Assembly (NCBI GenBank): GCA_973895155.1
Contig: OZ316895.1
Span: forward strand, 18,051,880 to 18,115,879
Reading direction: 5' to 3'
Length of the DNA stretch: 64,000 nucleotides
Origin: Marsupella aquatica
Taxonomy: Eukaryota > Plantae > Marchantiophyta
Shown here: positions 38,001-64,000 of the stretch, in pieces
Layout: the number at the start of each line of letters is the position of its first letter
Position numbering within the stretch: position 1 is the first letter of the stretch
Program-made: the position numbers and the translations under genes
Notes under the pieces: model-generated
The model's input: only the letters and a program-made list of their open reading frames with translations
What the model was told of the DNA's origin: nothing
The model's database searches: none

Positions 38001-38209
38001 GGTTTCCTGGAAAGCTTTACACTCGCTGGTTAGGACCCTTTAGAGTAACCATGATGTTCCCCAATGGCTCCGTACAATTGGCCAACATTACGGGAGAGGT
38101 ATATCCAGTTCGCATCCATTATGACCGCCTCAAGAAATACTATATGGACGAAGATGAAGTTGTTCGCGAGGATGCTTCACAATTAAGTGGGGAGCTATGT
38201 GATGCCTAG
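32045..38209 (+). pseudogene. gag-pol: Element A gag-pol (three CCHC knuckles, PR, RT, RH, INT) with stops and frameshifts
   Basis: PR IDGGSG, RT FIDDF, RH FVDVS..NYSTTERE, INT WGIDYIG/SDRG/NGLTE/WLGPF. Lesions near 34016, ~34975, ~35113, 35563, ~35920 and ~37128. Confidence 0.95.
38185..38194 (+). other. Polypurine tract of element A
   Basis: AAGTGGGGAG three bases before the 3' LTR; the equivalent sequence precedes the family-B 3' LTR. Confidence 0.85.
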
Positions 38210-41200: not shown

Positions 41201-42860
41201 CATTGTAGAGCTCGACAAGGAGCTAAGAGCAACCCAGGAGGAGAGGACTACCTTGAAACAAGAACGGGAGGAAGCCCAGAAGGAACTAGAGGAGGCACGC
41301 AAGGACCTGGATGAGACCCAGGAGGAGTTGGAGGAAATCACGAGGAAGATGGAGAACCTCCAGCGGCGGGCCGACAACCAAACGGAGCGGCTGAAGAAAC
41401 AAGCCGCAGTATTTAAGTGCTTGTCTTCATCAGGCCCAACTCCAATTGGGGCAACCAAGTTACCAGGAGTGGTACTGGCCGAAGAAAAAGCCGCGCCACC
41501 TGCACCAGTGCCGGAAGTAAGTGGGAAGGGGAAGGGACCAGCTGCCGAACCAGAAAAGAAGAAGAAGCGGAAACCTTCAGGGTCAAGGAGTAATCCGACT
41601 CCACAAGCCGTGGTGACCAAGGAGGTAGAACCAGCACCATCCTCCGACATGAATACGGCAATAGATCCCGCTATCATCACAGGTGGGGGTGGTGCGGCCC
41701 AAGCCGAACTACTCAGTAATGAGGCCGGTATCCCAGATCCGCCTCTTGAGCAGGCCGGGGAGACCCAAGCCGTGGCTGAGGCCGTAACCGGTTCCCGAGC
41801 CGATGCCGACGCCGATGGTGGACCCAGTCAGGCCGATGGAGAGTTGACTCAGTCAAGGGCAGGTAATCTGTCAGAGAATGAACCTACGGCAGTGGCTGAG
41901 GAGGAAGCGTTGGGGGCGTCCATTAAGGATCCACCACCGGTGTCGTGACGGTGCAAGGGCGCCGTTCCTTTTAGGGAGGGCGGACGTGGAGGGAGGAGGC
42001 GTGAGTGGGCAGGGCGGGCGCTGATCTCCAAGTTTAGGATTAGGATCAGGACCAGGAGCGGCCCTGACACTTAGCTTAGTGGGATTGCGGTTCCACTAGT
42101 AGGAGCAACACTTGTGCTCCTGCCTTGCTGTACATAGGTAGATTCGGGCAAGTAGATTACTGTTAAGTAGATTAGGCTTACGATGCAAAGAATGGCGGAT
42201 CCACTACCAGGATAAGTACCTGGGCAGCGGGGAGCTCAGGGCCTCTTCTTTAGCAAGTTTTTAGTTTGCACCAGCCGGGCTGGGATCAAGTAGTACGAGA
42301 AGCTCTCGGTTAGTCATACAGTGACCCTTGTGTATATTCATGTTTCCTCATGCCTAAGAGCTGAATAGAGTTGGCCTCACGGCTTAGTTCGCAGAACTTG
42401 TGTATGAGATGTACTGTTTGTATGGCAAGTGCATGGTATGACTCAGTCAGAATGAGTCATTTTGCTATTTGTGTGTCGCATTAACTTGTGTGACGAGTGC
42501 CCACATCAACCAAAAGGAAGGAAAGTAAGCAGGGGAGTGAGAGTTGGATGTGTCGAGCTGAGAGAGGTCTTAGCGGCTTAACCAAGCCTATTGGGGATCA
42601 TTCCGGCGGCGGAATCCAAACATACCTAACAAGACGGAGGGGAAGACAGGGGAAGGCCTAGATTAGGCCGGCTACGTATCTCATGACCCGATGAAGGATC
42701 TGTCCAGTATATGTGTGTAAAATGTTAATAGTAGTAGTAGAAGGTTAGCAGCGTCCCATGCCGCTAAGCCGCGGAAACGGCCTCGCCAAGCGCGAAACCT
42801 GTGGGAATCGGCTTGAGCTGGGGGGTTTCTTGGGTTTAGGGAGCCATGGCACGCACCACA
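38198..42860 (+). repeat. 3' LTR of element A (4663 bp)
   Basis: Direct repeat of 27313-31975, followed by the TSD. Confidence 0.97.
38313..41948 (+). CDS. Second intact copy of the LTR-encoded 1211-aa protein
   Basis: Same 115-nt offset in the LTR, same length and near-identical protein. Confidence 0.85.
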   Translation: MEPGPRPEVRTLRVKTRLGSGRVKRRRLGRINGKKNRQRRGVRSACRRWWLICEHELGRRLREANYCQLLRQALGERVDTDDRPKEGMSNVNQAAHFWGCLFERATEYIKTYEDEESERAARERQELARLWELQKMAFLGGKLIKDEFLWTPTSNQLDDLLFCKDSVVGIREAIKNCNDIHWELKGSTERWTQATVLGETSTTAEMKRKGAVNDEATPAKRTRSAAPKKPAEQQSRRQGEAEEEEVDPIKAIPTRDDTWKGWAATLPVEVQLHFAWEEDACFTAMQTKKYQGFMAGSGLEAFVRLPWLKPEVPESDLLEFVGSWEPETNCTRIYGKDFYLTPKVIAEVFGLPIGNKTKFDTRKTLPDKEFRSFPGPSTKNGFFRDTCTNPHIGEMIDFLRVTMHCNLPRAEIGKAQVYLAERPDPSRDYNGYLLNQLKKILKEEQQVIGMGSVSRLGYHMPLLCRYARGQTFAPVLPLQVRAPEEAPTPRPLAEKPQPPVSPTIEQVFRPRKEDLPMQQPGMQSLLKLLENEKKSASATTTATATMQDTTTEVGLHRLTRENPFAGDKERIRPESKPGVRMYVGISSSESEAELPEAPTDEEEREKPDGQEVEEAVEDCNHDNSGYGSDHHVPGVRTCGRFVPTLPRVVRGDPNQQSSPESPPPDVAPPSFDGIKQTVQEFQERIKQEEEAALAREKDLPGGDWPEDIRRLAKKGSKPLATIEEIRKMAWEQRPRWAMPITSTYSTYAKNRAMEYGEMCGELALGIFGEELEVGPFFHREQLEKHQLEEAVALERSKKDEVIRRLRRMEAEIEDLRAAKKAQDELRIKRHELNIMQGQLDTAQADNQNIKDKLTQTQGELADTIKEREKWKQELKNTEEAHITAYSRAMAETQRKEWALKGELEKIRGALEQKEAELAKSYQGIMALQQELASLTASFKADLREKDEMLEQTYAKMNQMESVIIVELDKELRATQEERTTLKQEREEAQKELEEARKDLDETQEELEEITRKMENLQRRADNQTERLKKQAAVFKCLSSSGPTPIGATKLPGVVLAEEKAAPPAPVPEVSGKGKGPAAEPEKKKKRKPSGSRSNPTPQAVVTKEVEPAPSSDMNTAIDPAIITGGGGAAQAELLSNEAGIPDPPLEQAGETQAVAEAVTGSRADADADGGPSQADGELTQSRAGNLSENEPTAVAEEEALGASIKDPPPVS

Positions 42861-45800
42861 AGGTCCTACATATCCTGGAAAATACCACATCAGGGAGATT
42901 AGTGCGAGAGATACTCCCCATATATCCCCCAGGACTCTACATCACCCGAATCTATTCATATCATGCTACAAGTACTTCACTGACTTTAACACAAATATGG
43001 CATAATCGCCTTGGACATCCTGGTACAAGTATGTACCACAATATACTTAGGGCTACCGTGGGCATACCTAAAGGCGTTCACCCATCTACTACCAGCAAAC
43101 CCTGCCTCGCATGCTCACAAGGAAAAATGGTTACCTGTCCCTCACCATCCAAGACAATACATCAGATACCACAATTTTTGGAGAGAATACACGCTGATGT
43201 CTGTGGCCCCATTGACCCTCCTTCTGGCCCATTCCGATATTTCCTAGTTATCATTGATGCCTCTACTAAGTGGTCACAGGTCTCCCTGCTCTCTACCCGT
43301 AACCTGGTCTTCCCACGAATATTATCGCACATATTGAAATTAAAATACCAATTCCCAGAGAATCCCATCAAAACCATTAGAGTTGATAACGCGGGGGAAT
43401 TTACCTCCAAAACTTTCGATACCTTTTGTGAAATTGCAGGTATCAATACAGAATATCCGGTTCCACATGTTCACTTTTAGAATGGTCTTGCAAAATCCAT
43501 AATCAAATGAATACAGATGGTGGCCAGACCTCTCCTGATGCAGTCAAATTTACCAGCATCAGCTTGGGGCCATGCGGTCCTGCATGCAGCTGCCCTTATT
43601 CGACTGAGACCGTCCTCATTTAATACACAGACCCCACATTTTCTAGCATATGGATTACCACCAGACATCACACATCTACAAATTTTTGGCTGCCTGGTAC
43701 TTGTCCCAATTTTAGGTCCCAAGAGAACTAAAATGGGACCTCAGAGACAGCGCGGTATCTATGTGGGCTTTGACTCACGCTCTATTATAAGATGTTTGGA
43801 ACCTTCCACAGCAGATGTTTTTAAAGCACGGTTCCAAGACTGCCATTTCTTTGAAGACGATTTTCCAACCCTTACAGAAGATCCCATGAGAAATGGCAAT
43901 GTACCAGTGAAAGACTTACAATGGTTGTCTCCTCGCCTGCTTACAGAGGACCACCGAACTAAAGAAACAGATCTGGAAGTACAACGTGTTCTCCACTTAC
44001 AATAGATGCTTATGAAACTTCCTGATGCATTCAACGATGCAGCCACTGTCACTCGCTCACACATCGAAGCAGCCAACATACCAGCTCGAATTTCTCGGCA
44101 GCCTACACCAGCCACTCACGCTGCACCCAAGGCCAAAAGAGGACGCCCACTGGGATCCAAGGACTCTCATCCAAGACAGTCCCGCACGAGTGTAGCTCGT
44201 CCATCTCCCACCATTACACCAACCATAGAACCATCTTCACAAGGACCAGCCGATAATGAGGAGATCACAATTAATTACGTACATACCGGGAAGATAATGC
44301 AGCGTGATACAATCCGAATTGATGATATCTTTGCATTCCAGATTTCCGAGGACATTATCAATACAACTCCTGATCCCCTAACCATTGCTGAGGCCCGAAC
44401 TCGCCCGGATTGGCCACAATGGGAGCTAGCTATCAATTCAGAACTGGACTCCCTAATCAGACAAAAAGTTTTTGGGCCCATCATTCCTGCACCTGCCGGA
44501 CTTCATCTTACAGGATACAGATTTATTTTTGTTAGAAAATGAAATGCGAAAGGAGAAGTTATCAGACATAAAGCACGCCTAGTCGCGAAGGGCTATACCC
44601 AGATCCCCGGCCGGGACTTTGATCAAACATATTCTCCTGTCATGGATTCCATCACATATAGATATCTTATTGCATATGCTCTTATCCACAAACTAGTAAT
44701 GCATATTTTAGATGTGATTATTGCCTATCTATATGGTACCCTTGATACCAAAATTTATATGAAGGCACCCCCCAAACTCATCAAGCGATTGACGTTTCAC
44801 ATTGAGGGGGAGAAAACCGGTAAACTAAGCCCAGGTCTACAACCTGGAGTACAGCAAACTTGTCCTACAGGCAATTTGACTTCAGTGACGACTGAGACTG
44901 GACCTTTAGTCCCAACCACACAAGATGTGCTACACACATCCGCTCAGAGGAAACGAATGTCTTCCTCACAGGTTACCCCTGTTACACAAACAAAGAAAGT
45001 TAAAAGAGAACTTGCAGTTCAAGTACTTCGCTCTCTATATGGTTTAAAACAGAGTGGGTGGACCTGGTATAAACGCTTCAAAGCTGAAATGATTGCACTG
45101 AATTTTATTACTGACGATATTGCCCCTTGCCTATTTCTCAAACAGGACGGAAATGAATTCGTCATTATAGCAATTTATGTTGACGACATCAATATTTTTG
45201 GCACAGCAAAAATTACAGCTGATACAATAGACATCCTAAAGAAGATATTCGAGATGCGGGACATAGGTAAACCCACCTATTGCTTGGGCTTACAGTTTAA
45301 TCACTTGCATCATGGCATACTCATTACTCAATCTACCTATACTGAGAAAGTATTAAAACAGTTTAACATGGAGACTGCTTACCCTGTTAGCACTCCTATG
45401 GATTTGAGATCCTCAGATCCTGCAAAGGATACATTCAGGAAATGGACTGCACGAGAAGCCATTCTTGGCCCAGAAAAGCCTTACCTCTCAGCAATCGGGG
45501 CTCTCATGTACCTGGCTACACAGTCCCGTCCTGATATCTCTTTTGCAGTCAATCTTCTTGCACGCCATAGTGCCAAACCCACTATTCGTCATTGGAATGG
45601 CGTAAAGCGAGTATTCCGTTACCTGCAAGGAACCATAGACCTGGGACTATTCTTTCCCAAGCAGTCAGAAAATCTATTGGTGGGATATGCAGACGCAGGA
45701 TACCTTTCAGACCCTGACGATGCAAAATCCCAAACGGGATATGTTTTTCTTCAAGGAGGTACTGCTATCTCCTGGAGAAGCTGCAAACAAACATTGACAG

Positions 45801-46182
45801 CTACTTCGTCCAACCACGCGGAAATCATTGCCCTCTACGAAGCCACTAGGGAATGCATTTGGTTAAGAAACTTGATGGATCATATTCATACACACACAGG
45901 GAACTCTCGTTTGGATAAACCTACGATTATCTATGAAGATAATCGACCCTGTGTCGATCAGATAGTGCAGGGTTTTATCAAAGGCGATCGTATTAAACAT
46001 ATAGCACCTAAATTCTTTTATACACATGAGCAGCACGGCGGACAGGTCAATGTACAGTGGATTCCTAGCAAGGAAAATCGAGCAGATTTATTTACGAACC
46101 ACTACCATCATCTCTCCACAGAGAACATACATATGGTATAGGCATGAGAAGCATGACCTCACTGCTGCAAGGCATCAATAGA
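42861..46182 (+). pseudogene. pol: Copia integrase, RT and RNase H with in-frame stops
   Basis: WHNRLGHP, HADVCGP, IRVDNAGEF, SLYGLKQSG, IYVDD, GYADAGY and KHIAPKFF. Stops at ~43478, 43508, 44003 and 44540, and a frameshift near the end. Confidence 0.93.
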
Positions 46183-47196: not shown

Positions 47197-50100
47197 CACT
47201 AAGTCCTATTGGTCTCATCTAATCCACACAGACGTTGCAGCTTCTCAGTGAGGCTCTTCCAAGCTTGAAGGTGAGAACTCCAGAAGTCTCGGACCTTCCA
47301 AATGCCTAACTTGCCACATACCATAACAACTGCAGACAGTGTATCTTCTGAGAGGTCATAGAACCCTTGTAAGCAACGGAGCAAGTCCTCCACTCCCCAA
47401 TGTTCCGGGATGGAACCAGTACCCGGGCAGAAGATCAGATGGCTCCTCACCTGCTCCCAGGCACACCAAATCTGTCGAGTGTAGGCGAGTTTACCAAAGG
47501 AACGAGGGGTGCTCAAAAGTAGTTTATCCTGCAATGAGTAATTGTTCCTGCGTACAGTCTTGAAGTTGCGCCATTTTGTCAGTAGTAAATTTGCAGCATA
47601 CATCTTAGACCATTCCGCCTCTGGGTGATTCAAGGCTCCACTGAACCACTTACTCAATAAGGCATCAGAATGGCTCCTGAATTCCTTCAGGCCAAGGCCC
47701 CCATCCATCTTGGGTCTGCAAATTGTTTGCCATGCCACCAGTGGTATTCGCTTCCCTCCCTGCTTGTTCGTGCCCCACAAGAAGACCCGACTCAGAGCAA
47801 TCAATTTCTTAGCTAAAGAGGTAGGGGATTTGAGAAACATCATATGATATATAGGGATCGCCTATAAGACATGTTTAACCAACAATACGTAAAAGTCTAG
47901 CACTAATACGGTCCAAGCAAAAACAATGTAGTTGTGCTTCCGAGAGGCCAGAGCCAAAAGGTGCCCCCAAATATTTGTGTACCTTCCCTTCCCTACTGAT
48001 CACACAGCCCGTGTTCCGCAGCCAAATTCGGATCTCTTCCAGGGCAAGGGGCACCACAACTGACTTACTCAGGTTGAGCTTAGCACCCGTTGCACATTCA
48101 TAGCAACTGATAGCACACCGAGCCTGTTCAAAGGCCAATGGAGTGGCAGGGATGAAGAGGCCTAGGTCATCAGCAAATAACCTATAGCAGATGTTCAGTG
48201 ACGCAGAGACTTGAATTCCTTGTAATCGACACGCTGCAATCTCAACTTTGAGAAAATCCATAAGAGGCTGTGTTGAGATTGCAAAGAGTAGAGGGGAGAG
48301 AGGGCAACCTTGACGTACCCCTCTGCGCATCTGAATGTCATCAGTCCATAAGCCATTCACCAGTGCCTTAGAGCAAGCATTGCTAATAAGAGATCGAACT
48401 AGGAAGATAAAATGGGAGCCAATTCCTAATAAATACATTGTTTCCCAGATATAGGAATGATCTACTCTATCAAAAGCCTTTTCAAAATCCAGTTTCAGAA
48501 AAAGCGAAGGAGTCCGGGTGCAGTGGATCCAATCATTGGTAAGCCAGGTGAGTGAGATGTTTTCGAGAATGTGTCTGCCAGGTATGAATCCAGTCTGCTA
48601 GGGACTGATCAGCTTGGGCAGGAGCAGTTTCAAACGTAGGGCCACCAATTTGGCCAAAAGCTTGTAAGTGATAGTTAGCATGGTTAATGCTCTCCAATCA
48701 CCCAATCAACGCTTATCAGTTTTCTTTGGTATAAAGCGAATGACCCCCTCCTTGATGCAGAAGGCCAGATTTCCAGTTCTCCAGAAATCGCAAATCATTG
48801 CATGAAAATCAGTTTGTAAGAAATGCCAACATGCCCTGAAAACCTCAGCCATCATCCCGTCCACGCCAGGAGCTTTGTCATTGGGGAGCAACATCAAAGT
48901 CTCCTGTACGTAGTTCACGAGCAGATGCAAGTTCTTCCAACATCCTTATTTCAGCAGCCGAGGGGGCAAAGTGAGTGGCTCCGGTCAGCACTCTTTGTGC
49001 AGCAAGTCACTTCCTGAGGGCCACAGCATCCAGATCAGGGGGCGAGTACAGCTTCTCATAGAATGTCTGTACTTCCTGAACAATCAGTTTCTCATCGCGT
49101 ATTTCGCTTCCTCCTTCAGCAACAAGGTATTCCATTTTTCCCTCTGTCTTTTTGCTTTCATAGTAGCGAAGTAGAACTTGGAAGGTTCATCCCCTTGCCC
49201 TAGCCATTTAATTCTAGAGACTCTACAGCAATGATGAGCTTCTTCCAACTCAAAAGCCCTAACACTGCTCTCCATGCTGGTAAAATCCTTTATGTTGTCA
49301 GGAGAATAATCCTCCCTGATAGTGATCTTCAGAACTCGAAGTCTATCACGCAATATACGCAATTCTTCATCACGTGAGATGGGAGAAGCTTGCAGCCGTA
49401 TGTAGCATTGTTGTAAATGCTGATATGCCTGAGTAAAACGTAGGTGGGGATCAGTCGGAGCCGATTCAATCCCCAGCCAGGCATCCGCCAGTAATTTCAA
49501 ATTCTTGTCCTTCCGTAGCACTCCAGGATTTGCCTTAAAATAAGAAGCTCTTCACTGATCCGATTCAGTCAAAAGAATGGGGGCTAGGCAAAATGAAACA
49601 ATGACCGGGTCATGATCGGAGAGTGCCAAAGACCCATCGTGGGTGAGTTCAACCAGCTCCTCAGTCCATCGGCCTTGCTCAGAGAAGTAGAAGCGATCTA
49701 GATGGGATTGAACCAGTACACCATTCCGTACTCTTCACCAGGTAAATCGAGAGCCAGTTACTTGGCCAAGGATCGAGTAAGCATCTTGTAAATCCAATCA
49801 AAGCTTCAGAAAATGCCAGAATTCATGCTCACGTCCATGGATCAGGGGGGAGGGGCCACTTGAGTCAGCACGTGACTCGGTCATGTTAAAATCACCACAA
49901 AAGACCCATCAATCGTGCGGGAGATCATTTCTCAGATCATTCCACAACAACGCTCTCTCGCCATCAAAATTAGGAGCATACACACTGATTAACCCAAAAT
50001 TTCCCTCCAGATGCTCCATTTGGATCCACATAGTGCGTCCACGATCCAACTGACCAGATGCCAGCACTTTATATGCAGGATTCAAAAGAATAGCCGTTCC

Positions 50101-50675
50101 ACCTCTGCCATCGTCAGGAGCAGAGTAAAAGTGTTGATAGTTGGGCAAGATCGTGCGTAGGGCCAGATCCAACCAAAAGCTATCCGCCTTTACTTCCTGT
50201 AGAGCGAGAGCATCTAGGGGCAATTTCAAAGAGGATATCCACTTCATTACAACATTTTTCCGGTCAGGGTCACACTGACCGCAGACGTTCCAAGACACAA
50301 AATTAAAGGGCGCCATCCATATATATGACACCACAAAGGGTATACCACCCATGGCTTAGCCTCCCGTCCCAAGCTGAGCAACACAATTTAAGCAGAGGGG
50401 GTAGAACCAGTGAGAATTCCCGGTAAAATATCAGAGGAACCGTGTACCATGCCAGGGGAGGTGCTGCGAGCTACATCCACCGTCGTATCCACCTCCAGGG
50501 AAGAGCCCTCAGATTGCTTCTTGTGATCACGTTGTCCTGAGGATAAGCAAAGAGGTGGGAAAAGAGGCTCAAGGGACACGCAGGGTGTATGGCTGCTTGA
50601 GATAGGAAACGATTGCAAACAAGATAAAGTAGACCCTAAGCACTTCCTTTCATCCACATCATCACAAGCAAGCAA
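47197..50675 (-). mobile_element. L1-type LINE ORF2 (APE endonuclease and RT), degenerate and 5'-truncated
   Basis: SWNVCG, LQEVK and SDH (EN); KAPGVDG, GVRQGCPLSPLLF, LFADD, KYLG and GGLG (RT). The 5' boundary is approximate and no TSD was found. Confidence 0.9.
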
Positions 50676-51789
50676 GCATGCATGCTTTCGAAACTCAAGC
50701 CATTTACATACTCATATCCAATCACAATCAAAATAACTAGTTCAAGCTTCCCAATGTAATCCTCACAAGTCTAAGCCCAACATTCAATTGGTCACCATTC
50801 CTTTTCCAACACTTGATTGCACACAATCCCTTGCAACCTTCTAAGGTACACAAGTTCAAGTGTACATTCAATGTGGTCAAGTTAAGGGTCACTCTTGGTT
50901 GTGGCTAAGACAAGTGGGACATCCAAAGGTATGCAAGGCATCTCTATGCACCATTCAAACATCCAACTTTCGAAACATGGGAAACTACTTTCGAAAAGTG
51001 ACCTAGGGTTGGTCAACAAACTCCTTAACAAACATGGAATTGACCTTAGTCCCTTCCTCTAGTAGAACCACCAAGTATAATCCACAAACAACCCAATCCA
51101 TCAATCAAAAATGCCTTCACTCTTTACTCTTGCAACTTCCCTCATGCATAATAACTACTTTTGAAAGTACCTTCATTCAACCCATCTACTTTCAAAAACA
51201 CCTTCAAGCTCACAACAACATTCGAAAATGGCATGAAGACATTCATTCTAACCATTCCATCACTCATAGCCAAAGCAAGGCATCAACCCACATCTCAAAA
51301 ACGAGGATACCTCTCCTCTAAATGCATAGCAAGAAGGCACATGTAGCATCATGGCCTCCAAGTAAAAACATGGGTCACAAGCAAGACCCTCCTAGCAAAA
51401 ATGAATCATCACCAAGTCTAATCATCAACCAAGCATTCAAAATCCCTCCATAGCCTATCCAAGCTTCAAAACCCTAGTCTCCTTCTCTCATACTTCCTTC
51501 TATCAACCAAATCTACTTTCGAAGCTTCAAGTCAAGGAGTTTACAAGAGAGTAGTCCTTCTTAGTGAGCCATCTCTAATGCAAGACTCCCAAGCTTCAAC
51601 AAGATTAGGTCTCATCTCCTCTAAGCTTTCGAAAATCTCCTACAAGTCCATTCTCCTCAAAACTTGAAGCAACAAACCTACATTCGAGTATGCCTTCTTG
51701 TGGGCAATCTCTCATGCAAGCTCCTTATACTTCCTACTCACATCCTACCTCCTTCCTAAGGCTTCGAGTCACACTACAACATATTTTGC

Positions 51790-52266
51790 CCTTTTGCGAA
51801 GCTCATTTGCGTCCGGACACACGTTTGCGATTCCAGATGCTTCAAACCGTTGATGACTCAATACGCATCGCAATTTGCGATACTTGTGGTATCGCAACTT
51901 TGGTCTTCCATGCGATTTGCATCGCAAACATTTTGTGAACTTTATTGTATCACAATATTTTGCGAAACTACAGAGATTACAAAACACATTACGAAGGCTC
52001 CGTGACCGCTCCGAAAGTCCGAAACCACGGTAACATTAATGTTGCGAAACAATTAGTATTGGAGGATGTTTGCGAAAAGGTTAGCTTCAAACAATTTGCG
52101 ATGGGTTTGTATGGCAAATGTGCGAAACGATGTGGATGGTAAAGGTGGGATGGTCTGGATATCGCAAAATAGTGAAGCGTATAGTATGGAATAATTGAGA
52201 AACGGTTTAAATGGCAGAATTGCGATTTGGTTGGGATTTGTTTAGTTTCGCAAACAGTTCGCAAAC
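51790..52266. repeat. CACTA subterminal repeats (TTTGCGA / TCGCAAA, both orientations)
   Basis: More than a dozen copies directly inside the CACTA end. Confidence 0.85.
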
Positions 52267-52671: not shown

Positions 52672-55600
52672 TCACACTTGGTCACCTTCAATGTCCTCTA
52701 CATCTGACACAAAAATAGTGTCTGGCTTGTCTGAAACAATGGAACGAGACCGTGGCACATATGTGATGACAAGTGACCACTCTGGGTCTAAGGGGTATGG
52801 AACGTAGAAACATTGCTCCAAGTGAGATGGGAAAGTAAATGGCTCTGACGTTTGCCAATGAGATGCTTGAAAACTAGTGGCACTTGTCCTCAACCGTGTA
52901 AACCCACTCTCATCTTGGAGTACAGTGCGATTATTACCAACAAGGTTCACTTTGAACCACTTGCACTTGAAGACATACTCCTCAAACTTAGATTGGTTGT
53001 CATATGAGACCACCAAAATCTCCTCTATCTTCCCATAGTGTGGCACAACATCACGAACAATGTTCCTGTCATGTCGGCTACTCCGGGAGTCCTGACAAAA
53101 CTGCCCTTGAACTCCACAATCAAAAGTACGAGCCCTCTTCTCATCAAGGGAAGAAATCCTGAAATTAACAAGACCCATATATTGTTACTACTACACAAAA
53201 AACACTAATCATGTTATGAGGAACCTTTCATACCAAAAGAGAAAAACACACTTATCTTAAGTAAAATGATTACTATATCTTAAGTAGTAGTACATGAATA
53301 TGGAAAACAAGGTTAGGAACTAGTGAAACCTGAAGTGTCTCCCTTGGGTCCACATGGCCGTCTTGGATGTTACCACTCTCAAAGGGCCATGAACAATGGT
53401 CCAAATGTCATTTGTCATAGTAGGAAACTGTGAGACATCTCCTCCTTGTGCCAAAATGCCATCCAACTCAACCAACTTTTCCTTCATAAACTCATGCAAC
53501 TTAGGAAAAATCCTTGCCCTTTGACTCATTCTTTTGGCATTGTCATAAAACTCCCTCCATTCATCCATGACATTGCTATTACTCAACATGAATGTATTCA
53601 ACTGTGTCCACTCTGTTGATGTAAGCATGCGTGTTTTTGTTGCTCCTATTAAACGGTCCTCCTCCTCTTGCCTCTCCTCCATCCAAGTACGTGGTAAAGT
53701 CCGATCAATGGTGGCCAAGATGTTACTACAATAAAACATGCTCTCTGCAGCCAAGTATCCTGTAGCTATGCTTCCCTCCACTCGTGCACGGTTATGTACA
53801 TAAGCCTTCAAGACTGACATGTAACGCTCAAGCCAGTACATCCATCGACAATGAACTGGACCAGCAATGGCAACCTCCCTCACAAGATGCACAAGTAAAT
53901 GAACCTGACAATCAAAGAAGGAAGGAGGGAGGGCCTTCTCCAACTTGCAAACCACCTCAGCAGCCAATACCTCCATTCCAGGAATCTCTTCCACATATAT
54001 CTCCTTTGAGCATATCCATCTCAACAAATGACCCAATGACCAAATGGCATCTTGCACTTCTTTGGTCCCCAACCCTATAATTGCCACTGGCAATATATGC
54101 TGCAATAAGCGGTGATAGTCATGTGTCTTGAGATACCGTGGCCATTTGTGATTGTCCTCCATCCAAAAGCTTTCCTCAAATTGGCACCATAGCCTATAGG
54201 AAACCGCATCTCCCCTATACGATTCCGGAATTCACGTCTTTGGCCAACACTAAGCACCCAAGGAGCAGAAGGACGATGTTCCAAACCTGTGGCAGGATCA
54301 ACTTGTACCCATACATCTGGATGCATTTCCAACTCTTCACATGCCTCCCTGAAGTTAGTGTCCTTCTCCCCATAAAAATGAGCTATCAACGCCTTCCCCA
54401 CATTTCCCTCTATGTGCATGGGGTCTAAAAGATGGCGGATCTTCAACTCTGACCAATAGGGCAAACTGGCTAGTATACTCCACCTCGTCAACCCAGTACC
54501 ATCAAAGGTGAGGGGATCATCAGGGTCTGCCACCCTATCAGCTAGTGACTTCCAATGCCCAAAAGTTGTTGGTTCCGGAATTTCCCGCATATCACCAAGG
54601 GGCATGTCAAAGGAGGAAAATAAAAGTGGGTCAGACCTCATCTCATGCCCCATCGGAAGAAACTTTGTATGCCCAATGTAAACAATCTTCCTAAGCCATG
54701 GGGACCAAATTGCCATATCTTGCAATTGTGGACCACAGGTGGAGCAAGCTTTGTACCCCTGAGTTTGCAATCCAGAGACAAAGCCAAACCCTGGTTACAC
54801 CAAAAATAAAACCAAACTAAATGTTAGGGTTGTCACATGACAAACAAGTATATTAAAGAGCATATCAAAGAAGGGTGGCATATGGTCAAAAAGTCATCTT
54901 ACCAGGATAGTCATGCATTGTCCAACAAACTACCCCTCTCAATTTAAATACACGTGGAATGCCTCCTGTATTTTTCCTGCCATCATATGCCCACACTCCA
55001 CCCCACAGTTTTTGGAGTTCTCCAATCAATAGTGCCAAATAAGTGTCAAAGTTCTTCACCTTTTTTGGACCTGGAATAATCAAAGACAGCAAGAGGAACC
55101 CCTTCTTCATGGATAGCCATGGTGGAAGGTTGTAATTCATCACAACCACAGGCCAAACTGATGTAGGTCTTCCCTTGCCTCCAAGGGCATGAGGACTAAC
55201 CCCATCAGATGCCAATCCCAACCTCACATGACGAGGATCATGTGCAAAGTCTGGCCATGTTTCCTCAATATGTTTGACTGCAGGAGAGTCAATTGGCAAC
55301 CGCATAACACCAGGCTCTGATCGATGAGTCTTATGCCATACCATCAACTCTGCCAAATCAGAACACCTGTACATGTGCAACAACCAAGGAATGATGGGAA
55401 ACCAACGAACAGCTTTTCTTGGCACCTTCTTTGTAATCATGTTGGGGTCATACCGTGGCTCATGACATTCAGCACACTGTGTCTTCTTCTCATCGGCCCC
55501 ATGAAATGACATGCAATCATTCACACATGCATGAATGATATGATATTCCATGCCAATTGATGAGAGAACACGCTTGGCCTCCTTCCAAGTTCCTGGCAAC

Positions 55601-57382
55601 ACATTGCCAGAAGGTAACATAAGGTCATGGAAAAGTGCAAACATATCAGATAACAAGGCATTGCTTGCCTTGTGTTTGGCCTGTAGATTCATCAACCCCA
55701 AGATAGCAGAAAGATGACTCAAATGAGCACCCTCATAGATAGGAGTTCGGGCATGTTCCTCTGCTTCCTCCCATTGGCGCTGTCCCTCGGGGGTATGTCT
55801 TGGTCGTGGATCATTGGGGGGCACATGACCTCCTTGATCAGCAGACACCTCAGCATCATCACCAGGGACGTCAACACCAAACCAATCAACCATAAAATCA
55901 TCCATGGCTCTATCTTGGTCATCAATAACCTGTTCATATGTTCTGGGTACATTGCGATCAGGGTTGTTGCTTCCACTGTCACTTGATGAGGAATGTGACC
56001 CAGAGCCTTGTCCTTCTTCCGGCATACCCATTTCCCGATATGCTGCTCTCAATCTCTGCGGTAACATATTTTGAGAGGGTCGCACATTCTAAAAACAATG
56101 CAAACAATTGAAAGTTACAAAGCAAATAGTTACAACATGTAGAAGAATATATGGGGGTGTGCAAACATGAAATAATATCGGTACTGGTGTAAATACAAAA
56201 TGTGGCCAAACGCCATGTGTATGGTCATTTTCTAATCCCACACATAGTGAGTAAACAACTCATCACCTGAGTGAATGGTCCTAGTAGCTACAACCAGACA
56301 ATGGTCATGATGATATGTCTGGCCATAAGGGGCTGGTGGAGGACCCTCAATGAAAACCCACTCACAATTTTGCCTACGCTTGGGGCGAGTCCCCACAGTA
56401 CTGTTTATGAAACCAGCTATATTCCCAGTTTGTATGGGGTCCCCATCTATCACCCGCTGCTCACTATACCTCCTAGTGTTTCCATCAAAAGTATCTAACT
56501 CCAAGGCATAAGTTTTCCACTCAGGATGTTGTGCAAGGATCATGTTCCAATGTCTTCTCTTGTAGATGGGTCCACCATAAGGAAACAACGTAGGTCCTTC
56601 TCGACCGCGTCCACCACTACCACTCTCGGTATCCACAATGATGTCTTCACAAGCAAAAACTCCATAGCCATGTCTATCCCCAAGTGTGGAAGGTTTGATA
56701 ACCCAACGTCTTCCCCAAACCTCTACCTCCTCACCATAGGAAAGCTCTTGTGGCAAACCAAGAGTCTGGGGATCCCAGTCCTTGATGATAGGAACACATC
56801 TGCCAGTAAACTCACAATCACCCCACCTACCGGTAACCACTGCCTTGTACAAATCAGTATCCCCTCGGGGCCGTCTCTTGGAACGCTTTCTCTCTCTTGG
56901 GACAACAGGCTCACCCCCAACTGCCCTAGGACTGGAGGGGGCTGTTGCTAGACCCAAGGCTTGTGAGAATGCATTGCCTATAGCATCTAGAACACCTTGT
57001 GATGGGACATAAGGTGCTGATGCCGCAGGTCTAGGCCTACTAGATACCTATTCCACCCAAACCAAAACAAACAACAAGAGGTGTGAAATTAAAAACCTTC
57101 ACCATTGCGATGTGGAAATAGGGTAGAAACTAAGGCGTAAACACTTACCACATGGGATGAGGAAGCCCTTGTTGTATGACGTCCGTAACGTCCATATCTC
57201 TCAATATGCTGGGTGCATATATAGGACTTTTGGGAAACCTGACCCACGCATTTGGCACATTGGCAAAGCTGACGGGGTGGACCACGAGGAGGAGGTGCAG
57301 TCGTGTGAGGTTGAGGAGGAGGTGGTATATCTTCATCGGAGGAGGAAGAATCTGTGGTGGAGATCTTAGAAGATGAAGACAT
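52672..57382 (-). pseudogene. tnpD: CACTA TnpD/Tnp2 transposase; predicted exons 57382-57149, 56088-54903, 54790-53330 and 53158-52672; one frameshift near 54165
   Basis: HACVNDC, RHVRLGLASDG, SVWPV..YNLPPW, DYPG|FGFVSG, LDPMHIEGN, LKTHDYH, HLLVHL..GPVHCRWMY..ERYM and FKCKWF. The GT-AG introns keep the frame. Confidence 0.9.
56232..57047 (-). CDS. SET-domain (lysine methyltransferase-like) exon, predicted to splice to exon 57382-57149
   Basis: SET motifs in the correct order: GYGVFACEDI, PYGG, AGFINS..NC and VATRTIHSGDELFTHY. The frame is open from the AG acceptor ending at 57048 to the stop at 56232. Confidence 0.85.
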   Translation of the reverse strand, partial: VSSRPRPAASAPYVPSQGVLDAIGNAFSQALGLATAPSSPRAVGGEPVVPRERKRSKRRPRGDTDLYKAVVTGRWGDCEFTGRCVPIIKDWDPQTLGLPQELSYGEEVEVWGRRWVIKPSTLGDRHGYGVFACEDIIVDTESGSGGRGREGPTLFPYGGPIYKRRHWNMILAQHPEWKTYALELDTFDGNTRRYSEQRVIDGDPIQTGNIAGFINSTVGTRPKRRQNCEWVFIEGPPPAPYGQTYHHDHCLVVATRTIHSGDELFTHYVWD

Positions 57383-58747
57383 TGCCCCTACAAAGATGTA
57401 TAATTTGCAAGTTAGGGGTTATTACCAAATAACATCACAATATCAAGCTGGACAAATGTAACTTCTCAAGTAATGATGACATGAAACCAAACACAAAAGG
57501 AACACTAAAAAATACCTTTCTGAGACCCAGGCTCAGCGGTGCCAATAGGTCTTGTGGCTCTAAAATAATGAACCGAATCTGGAAGTATGAGAAAAGCTGC
57601 AAGTACACAAAGCGAACACCTTACATACATGTCCTCTTTATAGATAGTGGGAACCAAAAATTTTAATTACATGAATAAGCCTAACTAGACCCATCTATTT
57701 TAGTCCGTACCTCCAGATGCCCGGGCTCTCACGATGCATACGCATTAGCTAGTATCAATTCATGCAAAAGTGCCGCACCCTGCAAGTTGTCATAGCTCCT
57801 CCTCCTTTGTTAGCATAAAACCCATGGAAAAACCATTAAAACCCAAAAGATCCATAAAACCCATTAAAACCCATAAAACCCATGGTAAAACAACTAAAAC
57901 ATTAATCTCATCTAACCTTGCTTTGCCTTTTCCAAACCCTCACCCCCAAACCTCTGACCTATTACAAAAACCTAGACCCTCACTCCCAATCCCCTTCCTC
58001 TCTTTTGTTTTAAACCCTAAACCCTTGCTTGAACCCTAAAAGCCTACAACCATAAATGCAAACCCTGCTTAAACCCAAAATTAAAGACTTAAACCCTAAA
58101 CCCAAACCCAACTTTAATCCTAAACCCTTTCCTCACTTATTAATTTAAAACCAAAACCCAACTCTTATCAAAATTAGCCTACACCCACACCATGTATAGC
58201 TTAAAAAACGGAAGGTTTGACTGGTAATCTCGCTTTTAACCCCTAAAAAAACCAGCTTCATCCAAGACCCAACCCTAACAAACGCCGGGATTTGAAACGG
58301 CGGAATTTCTTAATTACACAAAAGGGCATAGTATAACTTACATGGCCTAAACAAAAGGAGGAGGGAAAGAATGTGAAAAAAAATTCGCCAGGAATTGCCA
58401 CGATATTGAGAACCGACCTGCTTCGCAACCTGCTTCAGAATTTGGTCACATTATTTGCGAAGCAAAATGTTTCGCACCAGCTTCGGAAAAACAGAGCCCG
58501 AGAGCGTTTTTTTGCGTCTCTGCAGCTTTGCGAAGGCTTTGCAAAGCGTGTGGTTTCGCATTGGTTTTGGAAAGTTGAGATACTAGTTGCGAAGCGGGCT
58601 GATTTGCAAATTGCGATGCGGACTGCGTCACAAATGTGTTTTTTCTGGGCATTCGGACCTTCCTGCCGGGTTACGAGGCCCATTTGACGTTTTTTGAAGT
58701 GAGGGAGGGCAGGAGGAGAGCTTGCGCGCGCTTGGTGTTGGATAGCT

Positions 58748-59767
58748 ATGGATTCTAGTGGAGGGCGTGGAGGGGATGGGGCAGGGGCAAGTGGGAGTGG
58801 GAGTGGCAATGGCAATGGAGGGAACAGGAATGAGGAGAGTAATCAATGGATGAATTTGATGGCCGAGCATCTCAATGCCACACAGCTGAGCCATTTGGAT
58901 TTGAGTACACCAGCTGGGATTGCTTCTTTGAGTGCAATTCTAGGGCAAGCTTTGCAAACCGGGGTTGTAGCAGGGCAGGCTCAGAGGGAGAAAGAGGCAA
59001 AGGCTGTAGCTGAGGAGAAGGCCAGAGAGAAGAAACGAAAGAAGGAGGAGAGGGCTAAGGCAGGAGTACTCTCTCCTACAGCCCTCAAAAAGAAGAGGAG
59101 AAGGGAGGAACGAGATGAGATTCGAGCACAACGTGAGGCGCAGCGGAAAAAGGAGGAAGAGAGGAAGAAGCTGCCATTGATTGCCTTGGTTGAGGCATTC
59201 CTACTGAGTTGGCCTACACTGGGGCAAAGAGCACTATCAGGCTTGCTGTGAGGACTAGCTTTGCACGAGGTGTTGAGTGGGGGAAACTAAGCAGAGCAGA
59301 GCAGAGGAAAGTAATGACTTAGGTCAAAGATTCATTCAGAAATGGAGCAGAGATTGATGACCAGTGGCTTGCAGATAGAATTTCGAATTCAATGTCTCAA
59401 GCACGATACCATGATAGGAGGAAGGTGAGGGCCTACCTGGCAAGCTTGCAGGAGTACAGGAACGTGAGGAGGCCAGTGCAATTCACAGAGGATGTGTGGA
59501 ACGCGTTCTATAAGGTCGAGGTGCAGCTGAAAGCAGCCAAGGACCTCCAATTCTGGAAGGAGAAGGAGGCCAAGGCACTTCAGACCGGGAAGTCAGACCA
59601 AGACCTCAAGGCATTGGCTGAGAAGGTCTCTCAGTTGCAGCACATCGTGGATGAAGTGGGGACACCACCCCAGAAGTTCATCCTTGCAGCAGACCGAGTC
59701 AGCAAACGCCCCAAGACCACACACTAGATGGGGCAAGGTGGACTTCCCGGCCTGAAAGCAACCTTCG
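58748..59767 (+). pseudogene. TnpA/Transposase_24-like accessory gene, first exon, with a frameshift and stops
   Basis: Basic coiled region, RRPVQFTEDVWNAF, then RVSKRPKTTH*MGQGGLPGLKATF followed by a GTGAGT donor. Confidence 0.55.
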
Positions 59768-59945: not shown

Positions 59946-62900
59946 TGTGGTGCGTCCCATGGCTCCCTAAACCCAAGAAACCCCCCTGCTCAAGCCGATT
60001 CCCGCAGGTTTCGTGCTTGGCGAGGCCGTTTCCGCGGCTTAGCGGCATGGGACGCTGCTAACCTTCTACTACTACTATTAACATTTTACACACATATACT
60101 GGACAGATCCTTCATCGGGTCATGAGATACGTAGCTGGCCTAATATAGGCCTTCCCCTGTCTTCCCCTGTCTTCCCCTCCGTCTTGTTAGGTATGTTTGG
60201 ATTCCGCCGCCGGAATGATCCCCAATAGGCTTGGTTAAGCCGCTAAGACCTCTCTTAGCTCGACACATCCAACTCTCACTCCCCTGCTTACTTTCCTTCC
60301 TTCTGTTGATGTGGGCACTCTTCACACAAGTTAATGCGACACACAAATAGCAAAATGACTCATTCTGACTGAGTCATACCATGCACTTGCCATACAAACA
60401 GTACATCTCATACACAAGTTCTGCGAACTAAGCCGTGAGGCCAACTCTATTCAGCTCTTAGGCATGAGGAAACATGAATATACACAAGGGTCACTGTATG
60501 ACTAACCGAGAGCTTCTCGTACTACTTGATCCCAGCCCGGCTGGTGCAAACTAAAAACTTGCTAAAGAAGAGGCCCTGAGCTCCCCGCTGCCCAGGTACT
60601 TATCCTGGTAGTGGATCCGCCATTCTTTGCATCGTAAGCCTAATCTACTTAACAGTAATCTACTTGCCCGAATCTACCTATGTACAGCAAGGCAGGAGCA
60701 CAAGTGTTGCTCCTACCAGTGGGACCGCAATCCCACTAAGCTAAGTGTCAGGGCCGCTCCTGGTTCTGATCCTAATCCTAAACGTGGAGATCCGCGCCCG
60801 CCCTGCCCACTCACGCCTCCTCCCTCCACGTCCGCCCTCCCTAAAAGGAACGGCGCCCTTGCACCGTCACGACACCGGTGGTGGATCCTTAATGGACGCC
60901 CCCAACGCTTCCTCCTCAGCCACTGCCGTAGGCTCATTCCCTGACAGATTACCTGCCCTTGATTGACTCAACTCTCCATCGGCCTGACTGGGTCCACCAT
61001 CGGCGTCGGCATCGGCTCGAGAATCGGTTACGGCCTCAGCCTCGGCTACGGTCTCCCCGGCCTGCTCAAGAGGCGGATCTGGAATACTGGCCTCCTTACT
61101 GAGTAGTTCGGCTTGGGCCGCACCATCCCTACCTGTGATCATAGCGGGATCTATTGTCGTATTCATGTCGGAGGATGGTGCTGGTTCTACCTCTTTGGTC
61201 ACCACGGCTTGTGGAGTCGGATTACTCCTTGACCCTGAAGGTTTCCGCTTTTTCTTCTTTTCTGGTTCGGCAGCTGGTCCCTTCCCCTTCCCACTTACCT
61301 CCGGCACTGGTGCAGTTGGCGCGGCTTTTTCTTCGGCCAGTACCACTCCTGGTAACTTGGTTGCCCCAATTGGAGTTGGGCCTGATGAAGACAAGCACCT
61401 AAATACTGCGGCTTGTTTCTTCAGCCGCTCCGTTTGGTTGTCGGCCCGCCGCTGGAGGTTCTCCATCTTTCTCGTGATTTCCTCCAACTCCTCCTGGGTC
61501 TCATCCAGGTCCTTGCGTGCCTCCTCTAGTTCCTTCTGGGCTTCCTCCCGTTCTTGTTTCAAGGTAGTCCTCTCCTCCTGGGTTGCTTTTAGCTCCTTGT
61601 CGAGCTCTGCAATGATGACAGACTCCATCTGGTTTATCTTGGCGTAAGTCTGTTCGAGCATCTCGTCCTTCTCCCTTAGGTCGGCTTGAAGCTGGCCGTC
61701 AGGGACGCAAGCTCCTGCTGCAGCGCCATAATCCCTTGATAGGATTTCCCTAACTCGGCCTCCTTCTACTCAAGGGCTCCGCGGATTTTCTCGAGCTCCC
61801 CTTTCAACGCCCATTCCTTTCTTTGGGTCTCCGCCATGGCCCGGCTGTTGGCTGTTATGTGGGCCTCCTCTGTATTCTTCAGCTCTTGCTTCCACTTCTC
61901 CCTCTCTTTGATCGTGTCGGCCAACTCTTCCTGCGTCTGAGTCAGTTTATCCTTGATATTCTGATTATCAGCCTGCGCGGTGTCCAACTGCCCCTGCATG
62001 ATGTTCAGCTCATGTCGTTTAATCCGTAGTTCATCTTGGGCTTTCTTGGCCGTCCTTAGATCTTCAATCTTGGCTTCCATCCTCCTAAGCCGCCGAATGA
62101 CCTCGTCCTTCTTGCTTCTCTCTAAAGCCACCGCTTCTTCTAATTGGTGCTTCTCCAACTGCTCCCTATGGAAAAAGGGTCCTACCTCCAACTCCTCTCC
62201 GTCGGTAGGAGCTTGAGGCAATTCTGCCTCAGATTCGGAGCTTGAGGTTCCCACGTACATTCGAACACCTGGCTTGGATTCCGGCCTGATTCTCTCCTTG
62301 TCTCCAGCAAAGGGGTTTTCTCTTGTGAGCCGGTGTAGGCCTACCTCTGTAGTAGTGTCCTGCATTGTTGCCGTTGCCGTTGTTGTTGCCGATGCCGATT
62401 TCTTTTCTTTCTCCAGTAGTTTCAGCAGACTCTGCATGCCTGGTTGCTGCATCGGCAAGTCCTCCTTCCTGGGCCTAAACACCTGCTCGATCGTAGGACT
62501 AACAGGTGGTTGAGGCTTCTCAGCCAACGGCCTCGGCGTTGGAGCTTCCTCGGGTGCCCTTACCTGCAGGGGAAGTACCGGGGCAAAAGTCTGACCTCTG
62601 GCATACCGGCACAACAGCGGCATGTGATAGCCCAGCCGCGATACGCTCCCCATGCCGATTACCTGCTGCTCCTCCTTTAAGATCTTCTTCAATTGGTTGA
62701 GGAGGTACCCGTTGTAGTCCCGGCTTGGGTCTGGCCTTTCTGCCAGATAGACCTGTGCCTTGCCGATCTCTGCCCTCGGCAAGTTACAATGCATGGTCAC
62801 CCGCAAGAAGTCGATCATCTCTCCTATGTGCGGGTTGGTGCAGGTGTTCCGGAAGAAGCCATTCTTTGTTGATGGCCCGGGGAACGACCGGAACTCCTTG

Positions 62901-64000
62901 TCAGGCAAGGTCTTCCTGGTATCAACTTTGGTCTTATTGCCTATCGGCAGGCCAAACACTTCGGCAATTACCTTGGGAGTAAGATAGAAATCCTTCCCAT
63001 ATATCCTCGTGCAATTGGTCTCGGGTTCCCATGACCCCACGAATTCTAATAGGTCTGACTCCGGTACCTCCGGCTTCAGCCATGGTAATCTTACAAAGGC
63101 CTCCAAGCCGGATCCGGCCATGAAGCCTTGGTACTTCTTGGTCTGCATGGCCGTAAAGCATGCATCCTCCTCCCGTGCAAAATGTAGTTGCACCTCCACC
63201 GGTAGGGTTGCCGCCCAGCCCTTCCAGGTGTCATCCCTGGTTGGAATGGCCTTGATGGGATCGACCTCCTCCTCTTCGGCTTCTCCCTGCCTCCTGTTCT
63301 GCTGCTCGGCTGGCTTCTTTGGTGCCGCTGACCTCGTTCTTTTTGCCGGGGTGGCTTCATCGTTGACGGCTCCCTTCCTCTTCATCTCTGCTGCCGTGGA
63401 GGTTTCTCCTAGCACCGTTGCCTGGGTCCACCTTTCCGTGCTACCCTTTAATTCCCAATGTATGTCGTTGCAGTTCTTGATGGCCTCTCGGATGCCGACG
63501 ACGTTGTCTTTGCAAAACAGAAGATCGTCGAGTTGATTGGAAGTAGGCGTCCACAGGAACTCGTCCTTGATGAGTTCGCCTCCTAAGAAAGCCGTCTTCT
63601 GCAGCTCCCACAATCGAGCGAGCTCCTGCCGTTCTCGAGCTGCCCTTTCTGGCTCCTCGTCCTCGTAAGTCTTGATGTACTCAGTTGCCCGTTCGAACAG
63701 GCATCCCCAGAAATGTGCCGCTTGATTGACGTTGCTCATACCCTCCTTAGGTCGATCGTCGGTATCTACTCTCTCCCCGAGTGCTTGCCTAAGCAGCTGA
63801 CAGTAGTTGGCCTCCCGTAGTCGTCTGCCTAGTTCGTGCTCGCAAATGAGCCACCATCTCCTGCAAGCGCTCCTTACCCCTCTCCTCCGCCGGTCCTTCT
63901 TCCCGTTGATCCTTCCTAGCCGCCGACGCTTAACGCGCCCTAACCCTAATCGGGTTTTCACCCTCAGCCTTACCTCCGGCCTCGGCCCGGGTTCCATGGT
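59946..64000 (-). mobile_element. Family-A giant LTR (3' or solo LTR) inserted in the CACTA accessory-gene intron, running off the right edge
   Basis: Reverse complement of the element A LTR, ending ..GCACCACA at 59946 with no PBS after it. Confidence 0.95.
60867..63997 (-). pseudogene. Family-A LTR ORF with a 501-bp in-frame deletion, a stop at 61766 and a 1-bp frameshift near 61685
   Basis: The 743-aa and 264-aa ORFs match the 1211-aa protein. Confidence 0.92.

Follow-up and report, generated by a model that had tools for sequence, protein, structure and literature searches.

The window analysed here, a stretch of 64,000 nucleotides from the liverwort Marsupella aquatica, contains a SET-domain exon placed inside a CACTA transposon, with an exon encoding a Cys/His motif (exon 1) on one side and the exons of the transposase gene TnpD on the other (Table 1). 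The TnpD exons match the Pfam families Transposase_21, DUF4218 and DUF4216. The coordinates given in an earlier, sequence-only reading of this locus proved too short, as the element extends beyond them and holds a third gene, ORF3.

Table 1. The CACTA element and adjoining features, in positions of the window
Feature	Position	Strand	Basis or remark
3' terminus of CACTA element (CACTACAA...)	51772..51801	+	contig breakpoints; same end sequence closes L031
TTGCGA subterminal array, 14 copies	51794..52264	.	
TnpD last exon (DUF4216)	52672..53158	-	Pfam
TnpD exon 3 (end of Transposase_21, DUF4218)	53330..54790	-	frame change near 54162-54190 in the window copy
TnpD exon 2 (acidic linker, Transposase_21), behind phase-0 AG acceptor	54903..56088	-	
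T-rich spacer, 143 nt (41% T), SET stop to TnpD acceptor	56089..56231	-	
SET exon, 271 codons and stop	56232..57047	-	Pfam, structure model, Foldseek
GT-AG intron, 101 nt, phase 0	57048..57148	-	
Exon 1: Ser/Pro-rich start and CxCxxC...H motif	57149..57382	-	
Internal TTGCGA cluster, 5 copies, between both divergent genes	58423..58616	.	
ORF3 (third gene), divergent from exon 1	58748..59766	+	
Unrelated repeat, truncating the element's 5' part	59946..62200	.	97% identical to 29729-31975 and 40614-42860

Boundaries and gene content of the element

At the 3' terminus, a contig of sequencing run X4 starts to match the window at 51772 and has another flank, and contigs from four runs diverge from the window sequence after 51771. 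A second CACTA end was looked for within the window and not found. A candidate right terminus at 58701 was dismissed, given that a contig crosses this position and ORF3 extends past it. A complete relative of 9.9 kb is provided by a metagenome locus (L031, 4243-14135), which carries a CACTA-type end at 4243, a degenerate end at 14135 and a 3-bp target-site duplication, ACA, on both sides; its gene order (ORF3, exon 1, SET, TnpD) is that of the window. With CACTA termini, target duplication (in L031), TnpD and subterminal repeats, the window element and L031 are members of the CACTA/EnSpm group.

The hexamer TTGCGA was picked by eye in the window, and L031 therefore offers the fair test of its enrichment: this locus holds 29 copies, compared with 4.3 +/- 2.1 expected, in clusters at 4283-4758, 5475-5592, 6853-6899 and 13656-14081. 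Counterparts of the internal cluster of the window are found at 6853-6899 of L031 and at 40-89 of a second metagenome locus, L001. Clusters at the ends and in the divergent promoter are common to both families, which are ~70% alike, and in L031 a cluster also lies downstream of ORF3.

In the ~360 residues encoded by ORF3, a stretch rich in Lys, Arg and Glu is followed by a conserved region. Two stops and a frameshift near 59191 disrupt the window copy; matches were obtained in 12 loci (51-79% identical), and the frame is open in L035 (383-1615) and L044 (655-1884). Searches of Pfam, PDB and the Atlas assigned ORF3 to no family, and none of the scanned ORFs matched PF03004 (TnpA-type). ORF3 as a TnpA was likewise unsupported, with a probability of 0.04% against three TnpA-bearing proteins when very shallow profiles were compared. 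We consider ORF3 a candidate binder of the TTGCGA repeats.

TnpD had been described as frameshifted, and its frame indeed changes near 54162-54190; related copies in sequencing-run contigs have one extra base near 54162. The further argument that an intact SET frame beside a frameshifted TnpD speaks for the SET exon carries no weight, because these related copies possess the extra base and because stops are about equally frequent in metagenome copies of both parts (34 in 8183 codons for SET versus 33 in 5766 for the TnpD exons). In the metagenome family, TnpD exon 3 also holds ~162 extra bases (window 54192 versus L031 10792-10955), which may be an intron that the window's family lacks.

Other mobile sequences populate the window. 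Two direct repeats of 4670 nt (27306-31975 and 38191-42860) are 99.2% identical to each other, and a 97% copy occupies 59946-64000 on the opposite strand; the two repeats are likely the long terminal repeats of a young retroelement. Judged by eye, a Copia-like reverse transcriptase frame is found at 44543-46141 (+), and a broken LINE-like element with endonuclease and reverse transcriptase pieces at 47199-50355 (-).

A SET domain without a post-SET segment

The product of the SET exon consists of a linker, predicted to contain a helix, followed by an N-terminal extension specific to the family and then by the SET domain. It matches Pfam PF00856 with 27.6 bits (cut-off 22.4; E 4.2e-6), and 67 of 92 aligned family members match the same profile at E<=0.01. 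PF00856 is the only Pfam family in the exon and in the 92 aligned relatives, with no adenine methylase fused to it. A PDB search using the SET exon as a single sequence gave no match, and an earlier model of the exon was poor (pLDDT 53). The model of residues 64-271, based on the 92-sequence alignment, reached a pLDDT of 91.9 and a pTM of 0.87, and the 38 Foldseek matches listed were SET histone lysine methyltransferases throughout (TM 0.43-0.50, 16-22% identity). The Pfam score, the model and the Foldseek matches thus bear out the SET profile and fold that had been proposed from the sequence.

The best match among PDB profiles and by fold, and the closest enzyme of known structure, is LegAS4/RomA of Legionella (PDB 5czy, 8swi; E 6.6e-8, ~21% identity), which reads YINFS and also has no NH histidine. 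LegAS4 has been reported to methylate H3K14 and to hold the H3 peptide with its post-SET segment (PMC10653858). Six cofactor and active-site residues have been given for this enzyme (10.64898/2026.05.29.728679), which we mapped by counting along the profile alignment (offset 49). Four of the six are identical: Tyr135, Tyr159, Asn181 and Tyr220 correspond to Y157 (kept in 58/84 rows, with Phe in 26 more), Y180 (82/90), N215 (85/92) and the catalytic Y268 (74/78). Ser158 maps to a position that is variable in the family, and Tyr231 is without a counterpart, since it falls in the post-SET part that the window protein lacks. Further conserved residues are G127 (74/79) and G129 (80/81) of the GxG motif and E263 (77/79) of ELxxDY. 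Unlike the window protein, LegAS4 has a post-SET segment as well as H3-binding ankyrin repeats, and the likeness between the two shows neither descent nor a shared substrate.

Two departures from canonical SET domains had been noticed before, and both hold. Where classical SET domains show the motif RFINHxCxPN (PMC3980110), the family reads G[YF]INS (GFINS in the window, hence NS at the NH position), with Asn in 85/92 rows and His nowhere. Because the active LegAS4 also does without this histidine, its loss makes a classical SET domain less likely and leaves enzyme-like working unaffected. Secondly, post-SET cysteines had been reported as absent, and in fact the whole post-SET segment is missing: the window protein stops three residues past the catalytic Tyr, the tail beyond this residue has a median of 6 residues in the family (<=5 in 37/74), and none of the 74 tails has two Cys within its first 40 residues. 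The missing post-SET segment is the main doubt on the enzyme reading. The N-terminal extension is confidently folded in the model and has conserved Gly, Pro and Trp residues; that it replaces the post-SET wall would be a guess from this model.

These departures could mean that a weak or dead enzyme serves as a reader or decoy, which, bound to a histone tail or to a methyltransferase complex of the host, keeps silencing marks off the element, all the more so as classical SET enzymes need flanking regions for activity (PMC3980110). However, relatives down to ~25% identity retain the cofactor Asn, the motif I Gly residues and three Tyr, which would be needless in a dead protein, and LegAS4 is active without the histidine; we regard a decoy as quite unlikely. 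Judging from the residues kept, the balance tips towards a SET protein that binds SAM and is active.

The substrate of this putative enzyme is not readable from the scores, in which activating and repressive SET classes rank together, and the likeness to any single class is modest. EZH2, ATXR5/6, G9a and SET8 rank among the matches with MLL beside them, and H3K27me3 has been reported on many Marchantia transposons (10.1101/2022.10.24.513474), so that a repressive mark might be written, either limiting the element itself or its competitors, or reshaping the target site after insertion. Yet such scores do not separate the classes, and the described transposon-borne modifiers have been proposed or shown to act against silencing (PMC12730594, 10.1101/2025.02.11.637652), leaving a repressive mark very unlikely. 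Alternatively, an active lysine methyltransferase could modify a non-histone target (the transposase, ORF3 or a host silencing factor), and thereby tune transposition or disable a silencing protein. The active-site residues are kept while the segment with which LegAS4 grips H3 is absent, ORF3 contains a long Lys/Arg-rich stretch, and SET enzymes are known to methylate non-histone proteins as well (PMC10653858). Given that every one of the 38 Foldseek matches listed is a histone lysine methyltransferase, and that other such accessory genes of transposons modify chromatin or DNA (PMC12730594, 10.1101/2025.02.11.637652), we consider a non-histone target unlikely.

Exon 1 and two candidate splice acceptors

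Exon 1 comprises 234 nt with an ATG start, encodes CQCAKC...CTQHIERYG and is followed by a GTAAGT donor. Both AG acceptors (ending at 57048 and 56089) are in phase 0, and joining exon 1 to the SET exon yields 349 aa with a single terminal stop. The exon 1 sequence and its phase-0 donor (57382-57149), both acceptors and a product of ~350 aa with its own stop had all been claimed, and all are present as described. The comparison of exon 1 with the transposase-associated domain of CACTA elements fared less clearly: exon 1 does not match Pfam PF13963, and its relative P0115 does so only below the cut-off (E 0.031). Against our own profile of angiosperm TnpD N-termini, exon 1 scores 8.2 bits, which none of 2000 shuffled sequences reached (best shuffle, 7.9). 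The likeness is weak, and exon 1 may be a diverged transposase-associated domain; this weak score speaks against exon 1 serving TnpD as well.

The sole Met of the window's SET exon is residue 169, and the SET domain of the window can therefore be made only via splicing from upstream. The junction predicted here between exon 1 and SET is also the one used in two gene models, P0001 (351 aa) and P0004 (343 aa), although these are predictions themselves. A GT donor follows exon 1 in 19/19 rows, a phase-0 AG precedes SET in 15/16 rows and an AG precedes TnpD in 23/25 rows, the window counted; this order, with the phase-0 donor and both acceptors, recurs in metagenome loci ~70% identical. Contigs of five runs cross the predicted introns as DNA would, and among the joints listed for them none links 57149 to 57047 or to 56088, which has no bearing on expression. 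On the strength of these conserved signals, exon 1 is very probably spliced to the SET exon.

The junction of exon 1 with TnpD, which would skip a stretch of 1060 nt containing the SET exon, draws on other evidence. When families are compared, the seven codons that separate the TnpD acceptor from the first Met show 3, 0 and 4 differences at first, second and third positions, respectively, and keep N-[IV]-R-P-S, whereas the intron sequence before the acceptor varies. A CxCxxC...H motif stands at the start of 21/36 long TnpD relatives; TnpD exon 2 does not contain it, and in the window only exon 1 can therefore supply a Cys/His start to TnpD. All five strong donor-like sites within the SET exon (strong sites only were listed) are in phase 1 and thus cannot feed TnpD in frame. 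From these patterns, exon 1 is probably also spliced to TnpD. Of the proposal that SET and TnpD share exon 1, the SET junction is accordingly well supported, and the TnpD junction moderately so, by the conserved acceptor and the coding-like codons behind it.

TnpD could also start at its own Met (MLPQ...), which is present at codon 8 of the TnpD exon in all 25 rows, if a non-coding upstream exon were joined to it and exon 1 belonged to the SET gene only. Separate genes are found in EnSpm families of Arabidopsis (PMC13547354), and a donor that could define a 5' UTR exon is present at 57515. Against such a start, the seven pre-Met codons are conserved in a coding pattern, though this signal is small, and a Cys/His motif is the usual start of long TnpD relatives; we find this arrangement rather unlikely. 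The possible 5' UTR intron would span 57515-57388 (-) of the window, with GT at 57515 and AG ending at 57388; its donor context recurs in four loci, its acceptor not clearly.

Relatives and selection

A look for the SET exon in other copies and species had been proposed as a check; the exon recurs in metagenome loci as well as in relatives from Calypogeia, Sphagnum and Riccia. A word search retrieved 42 relatives among 2058 candidates, the named ones being from Calypogeia fissa, Sphagnum and Riccia sorocarpa, and a profile search over 1.84 billion representatives placed relatives in 129 clusters at 50% identity. Thirty of these clusters were looked up, and those carrying organism names came from Riccia, Calypogeia and Psilotum. 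The divergent members P0081, P0088, P0100 and P0115 also begin with the Cys/His motif, and the predicted Riccia gene models P0043, P0142 and P0151 join the SET sequence to Transposase_21, so that the layout recurs at 35-40% identity. In P0088 (a Logan contig; 423 aa), the Cys/His motif and a SET sequence ~39% identical to that of the window lie in one called protein, which could derive from a copy that is spliced or has no introns.

Of 44 metagenome loci, 29 leave at least 250 nt for TnpD behind SET, and 25 of these have it; on the other side, 24 leave at least 300 nt for exon 1, which is present in 19. Truncation of SET accounts for eight of the nine misses: it is cut at residue 182-248 in the four loci without TnpD and starts at residue 122-124 in four of the five without exon 1. 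Since 43 of the 44 loci belong to one family (90-98% alike in the SET-bearing segments) and L001 represents a second, about three independent DNA-level families, the window's included, underlie these linkage and splice counts.

A tree of the SET domain covers family members only, namely the 76 aligned rows (out of 92) whose core has <30% gaps; the nearest named SET to that of the window belongs to Calypogeia, a liverwort (89% over 159 columns). The synonymous distance between window 52672-57382 and L031, whose family matches Sphagnum-named proteins, is only ~0.8-1.4. This low distance, together with the Calypogeia neighbour, may point to horizontal transfer among bryophytes. Longer relatives of the SET protein were sought at 805-2295 residues only, in a weak search, and none were obtained. 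Scans that detect close relatives only gave 0/11 candidate stretches in viral contigs and 0/15 in prokaryotic genomes, and viral SET models match the window's SET no better than cellular ones. Distant members (P0170, P0139, P0146, P0143 and P0158) include a sequence of the fern Psilotum with a transcript-style name, and among them Calypogeia proteins have other N-termini; these members may ride other elements.

Selection was assessed by comparing the window with metagenome loci (Nei-Gojobori, medians). The SET core gave a dN of 0.185 and a dS of 0.76 (28 loci), exon 1 gave 0.147 and 1.19 (19 loci), and the TnpD parts gave 0.15-0.21 and 1.0-1.4 (4-11 loci). The resulting dN/dS of ~0.24 for SET between families exceeds that of TnpD (0.14-0.17) and indicates purifying rather than neutral evolution, which answers the proposal to compare substitution rates in other copies. 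Across these families, the SET exon is maintained in active lineages, slightly less tightly than TnpD. The large family on its own gives a pN/pS of 0.89 (15 loci), which would fit a functionless host fragment captured passively, though decay of copies after insertion gives the same value. Such passive capture is largely refuted by purifying selection between families and by the spread over 129 clusters, to which the Riccia layout adds, and it is scarcely credible as an explanation of the exon.

A model for the element and its known counterparts

The reading we favour, with a probability of roughly 45%, is that the SET protein methylates lysines, most likely of histones over its own element, and thereby counters host silencing, with exon 1 being spliced either way. 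We infer splicing, activity, targeting and direction of effect in the following scheme. One promoter would drive exon 1, and the choice of acceptor would lead to either the SET protein or TnpD, thus setting the ratio of regulator to transposase. The wall missing from the predicted enzyme would come from its folded N-terminal extension, from a partner or from the substrate. The SET protein could be brought to the TTGCGA arrays by ORF3, or via the Cys/His domain it would have in common with TnpD, and there it would methylate a histone lysine and keep the element expressed. That a SET protein guided in this way writes a mark favouring expression, or blocks a silencing mark, falls just short of an even chance in our estimate. 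It would thus fill the regulatory role of TnpA in the Spm elements of flowering plants. The most complete version of this scheme appears doubtful in all its parts together: a widespread lineage of plant CACTA elements in which one first exon serves both a self-encoded histone methyltransferase and the transposase, the former being a new SET subfamily without NH histidine or post-SET, guided by ORF3 to TTGCGA arrays and depositing an activating mark.

VANC proteins are encoded by MuDR elements and induce DNA hypomethylation; they are not known to be SET enzymes. Like the SET protein proposed here, VANC of VANDAL elements is an element-encoded factor for which sequence-specific undoing of silencing in its own family has been suggested (PMC12730594, 10.1101/2025.02.11.637652). 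The action of VANC has been shown experimentally, whereas that of the SET protein is proposed. Maize En/Spm produces transposase and regulator by alternative splicing (PMC13547354), as we propose for the window element, and both have subterminal repeats. However, the regulator TnpA is a helix-turn-helix DNA-binding protein, while the second product here would have a SET domain encoded upstream of TnpD. TnpA-like proteins are reported from flowering plants only (10.64898/2026.08.24.746577).

SET domains have been described in other transposons. The closest case is PAG2 of red-algal Plavaka elements, an accessory PF00856 SET protein in a transposon of the EnSpm superfamily that has been proposed to modulate transcription (10.1101/2025.02.11.637652). 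PAG2 is a separate gene that fuses SET to an N6-adenine methylase within a three-gene cassette of Plavaka elements of 17-19 kb; here, in contrast, a free SET exon precedes a Transposase_21 TnpD in a 10-kb element, likely with a shared exon 1. Captured SET genes are also carried by HarbingerS and MuDR of Phytophthora (PMC12730594) and by SET-bearing Helitrons (10.1101/2025.02.11.637652; PMC4067079). These belong to other superfamilies and hosts, and the excerpts of these reports at hand mention no shared first exon. Our literature search, whose scope lay outside Repbase and preprint supplements, found no SET exon in a Transposase_21-type CACTA element of land plants. Capture of SET by transposons is already known, the layout in a plant CACTA element was absent from the literature searched, and ORF3 and the TTGCGA repeats at ends and promoter are additions of the present analysis.

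SET genes carried by transposons are on record from oomycetes and red algae, where, as far as the available parts of these reports go, their function is only proposed. A compact and conserved example from bryophytes makes the concept of a transposon writing its own histone marks testable, given that genetics and chromatin profiling are routine in this group. For genome annotation, it is relevant that Sphagnum and Riccia copies are filed as host "SET domain-containing proteins", which can inflate counts of chromatin genes. A SET module of 208 residues without post-SET would show how small such an enzyme can be, and a shared first exon, if true, would tie the amount of a chromatin regulator to that of the transposase through one splice choice. 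If the most complete version of our model proves true, no transposon before this one will have been shown to rewrite directly the histone code it is under, and the SET protein would be the bryophyte counterpart to the role of TnpA.
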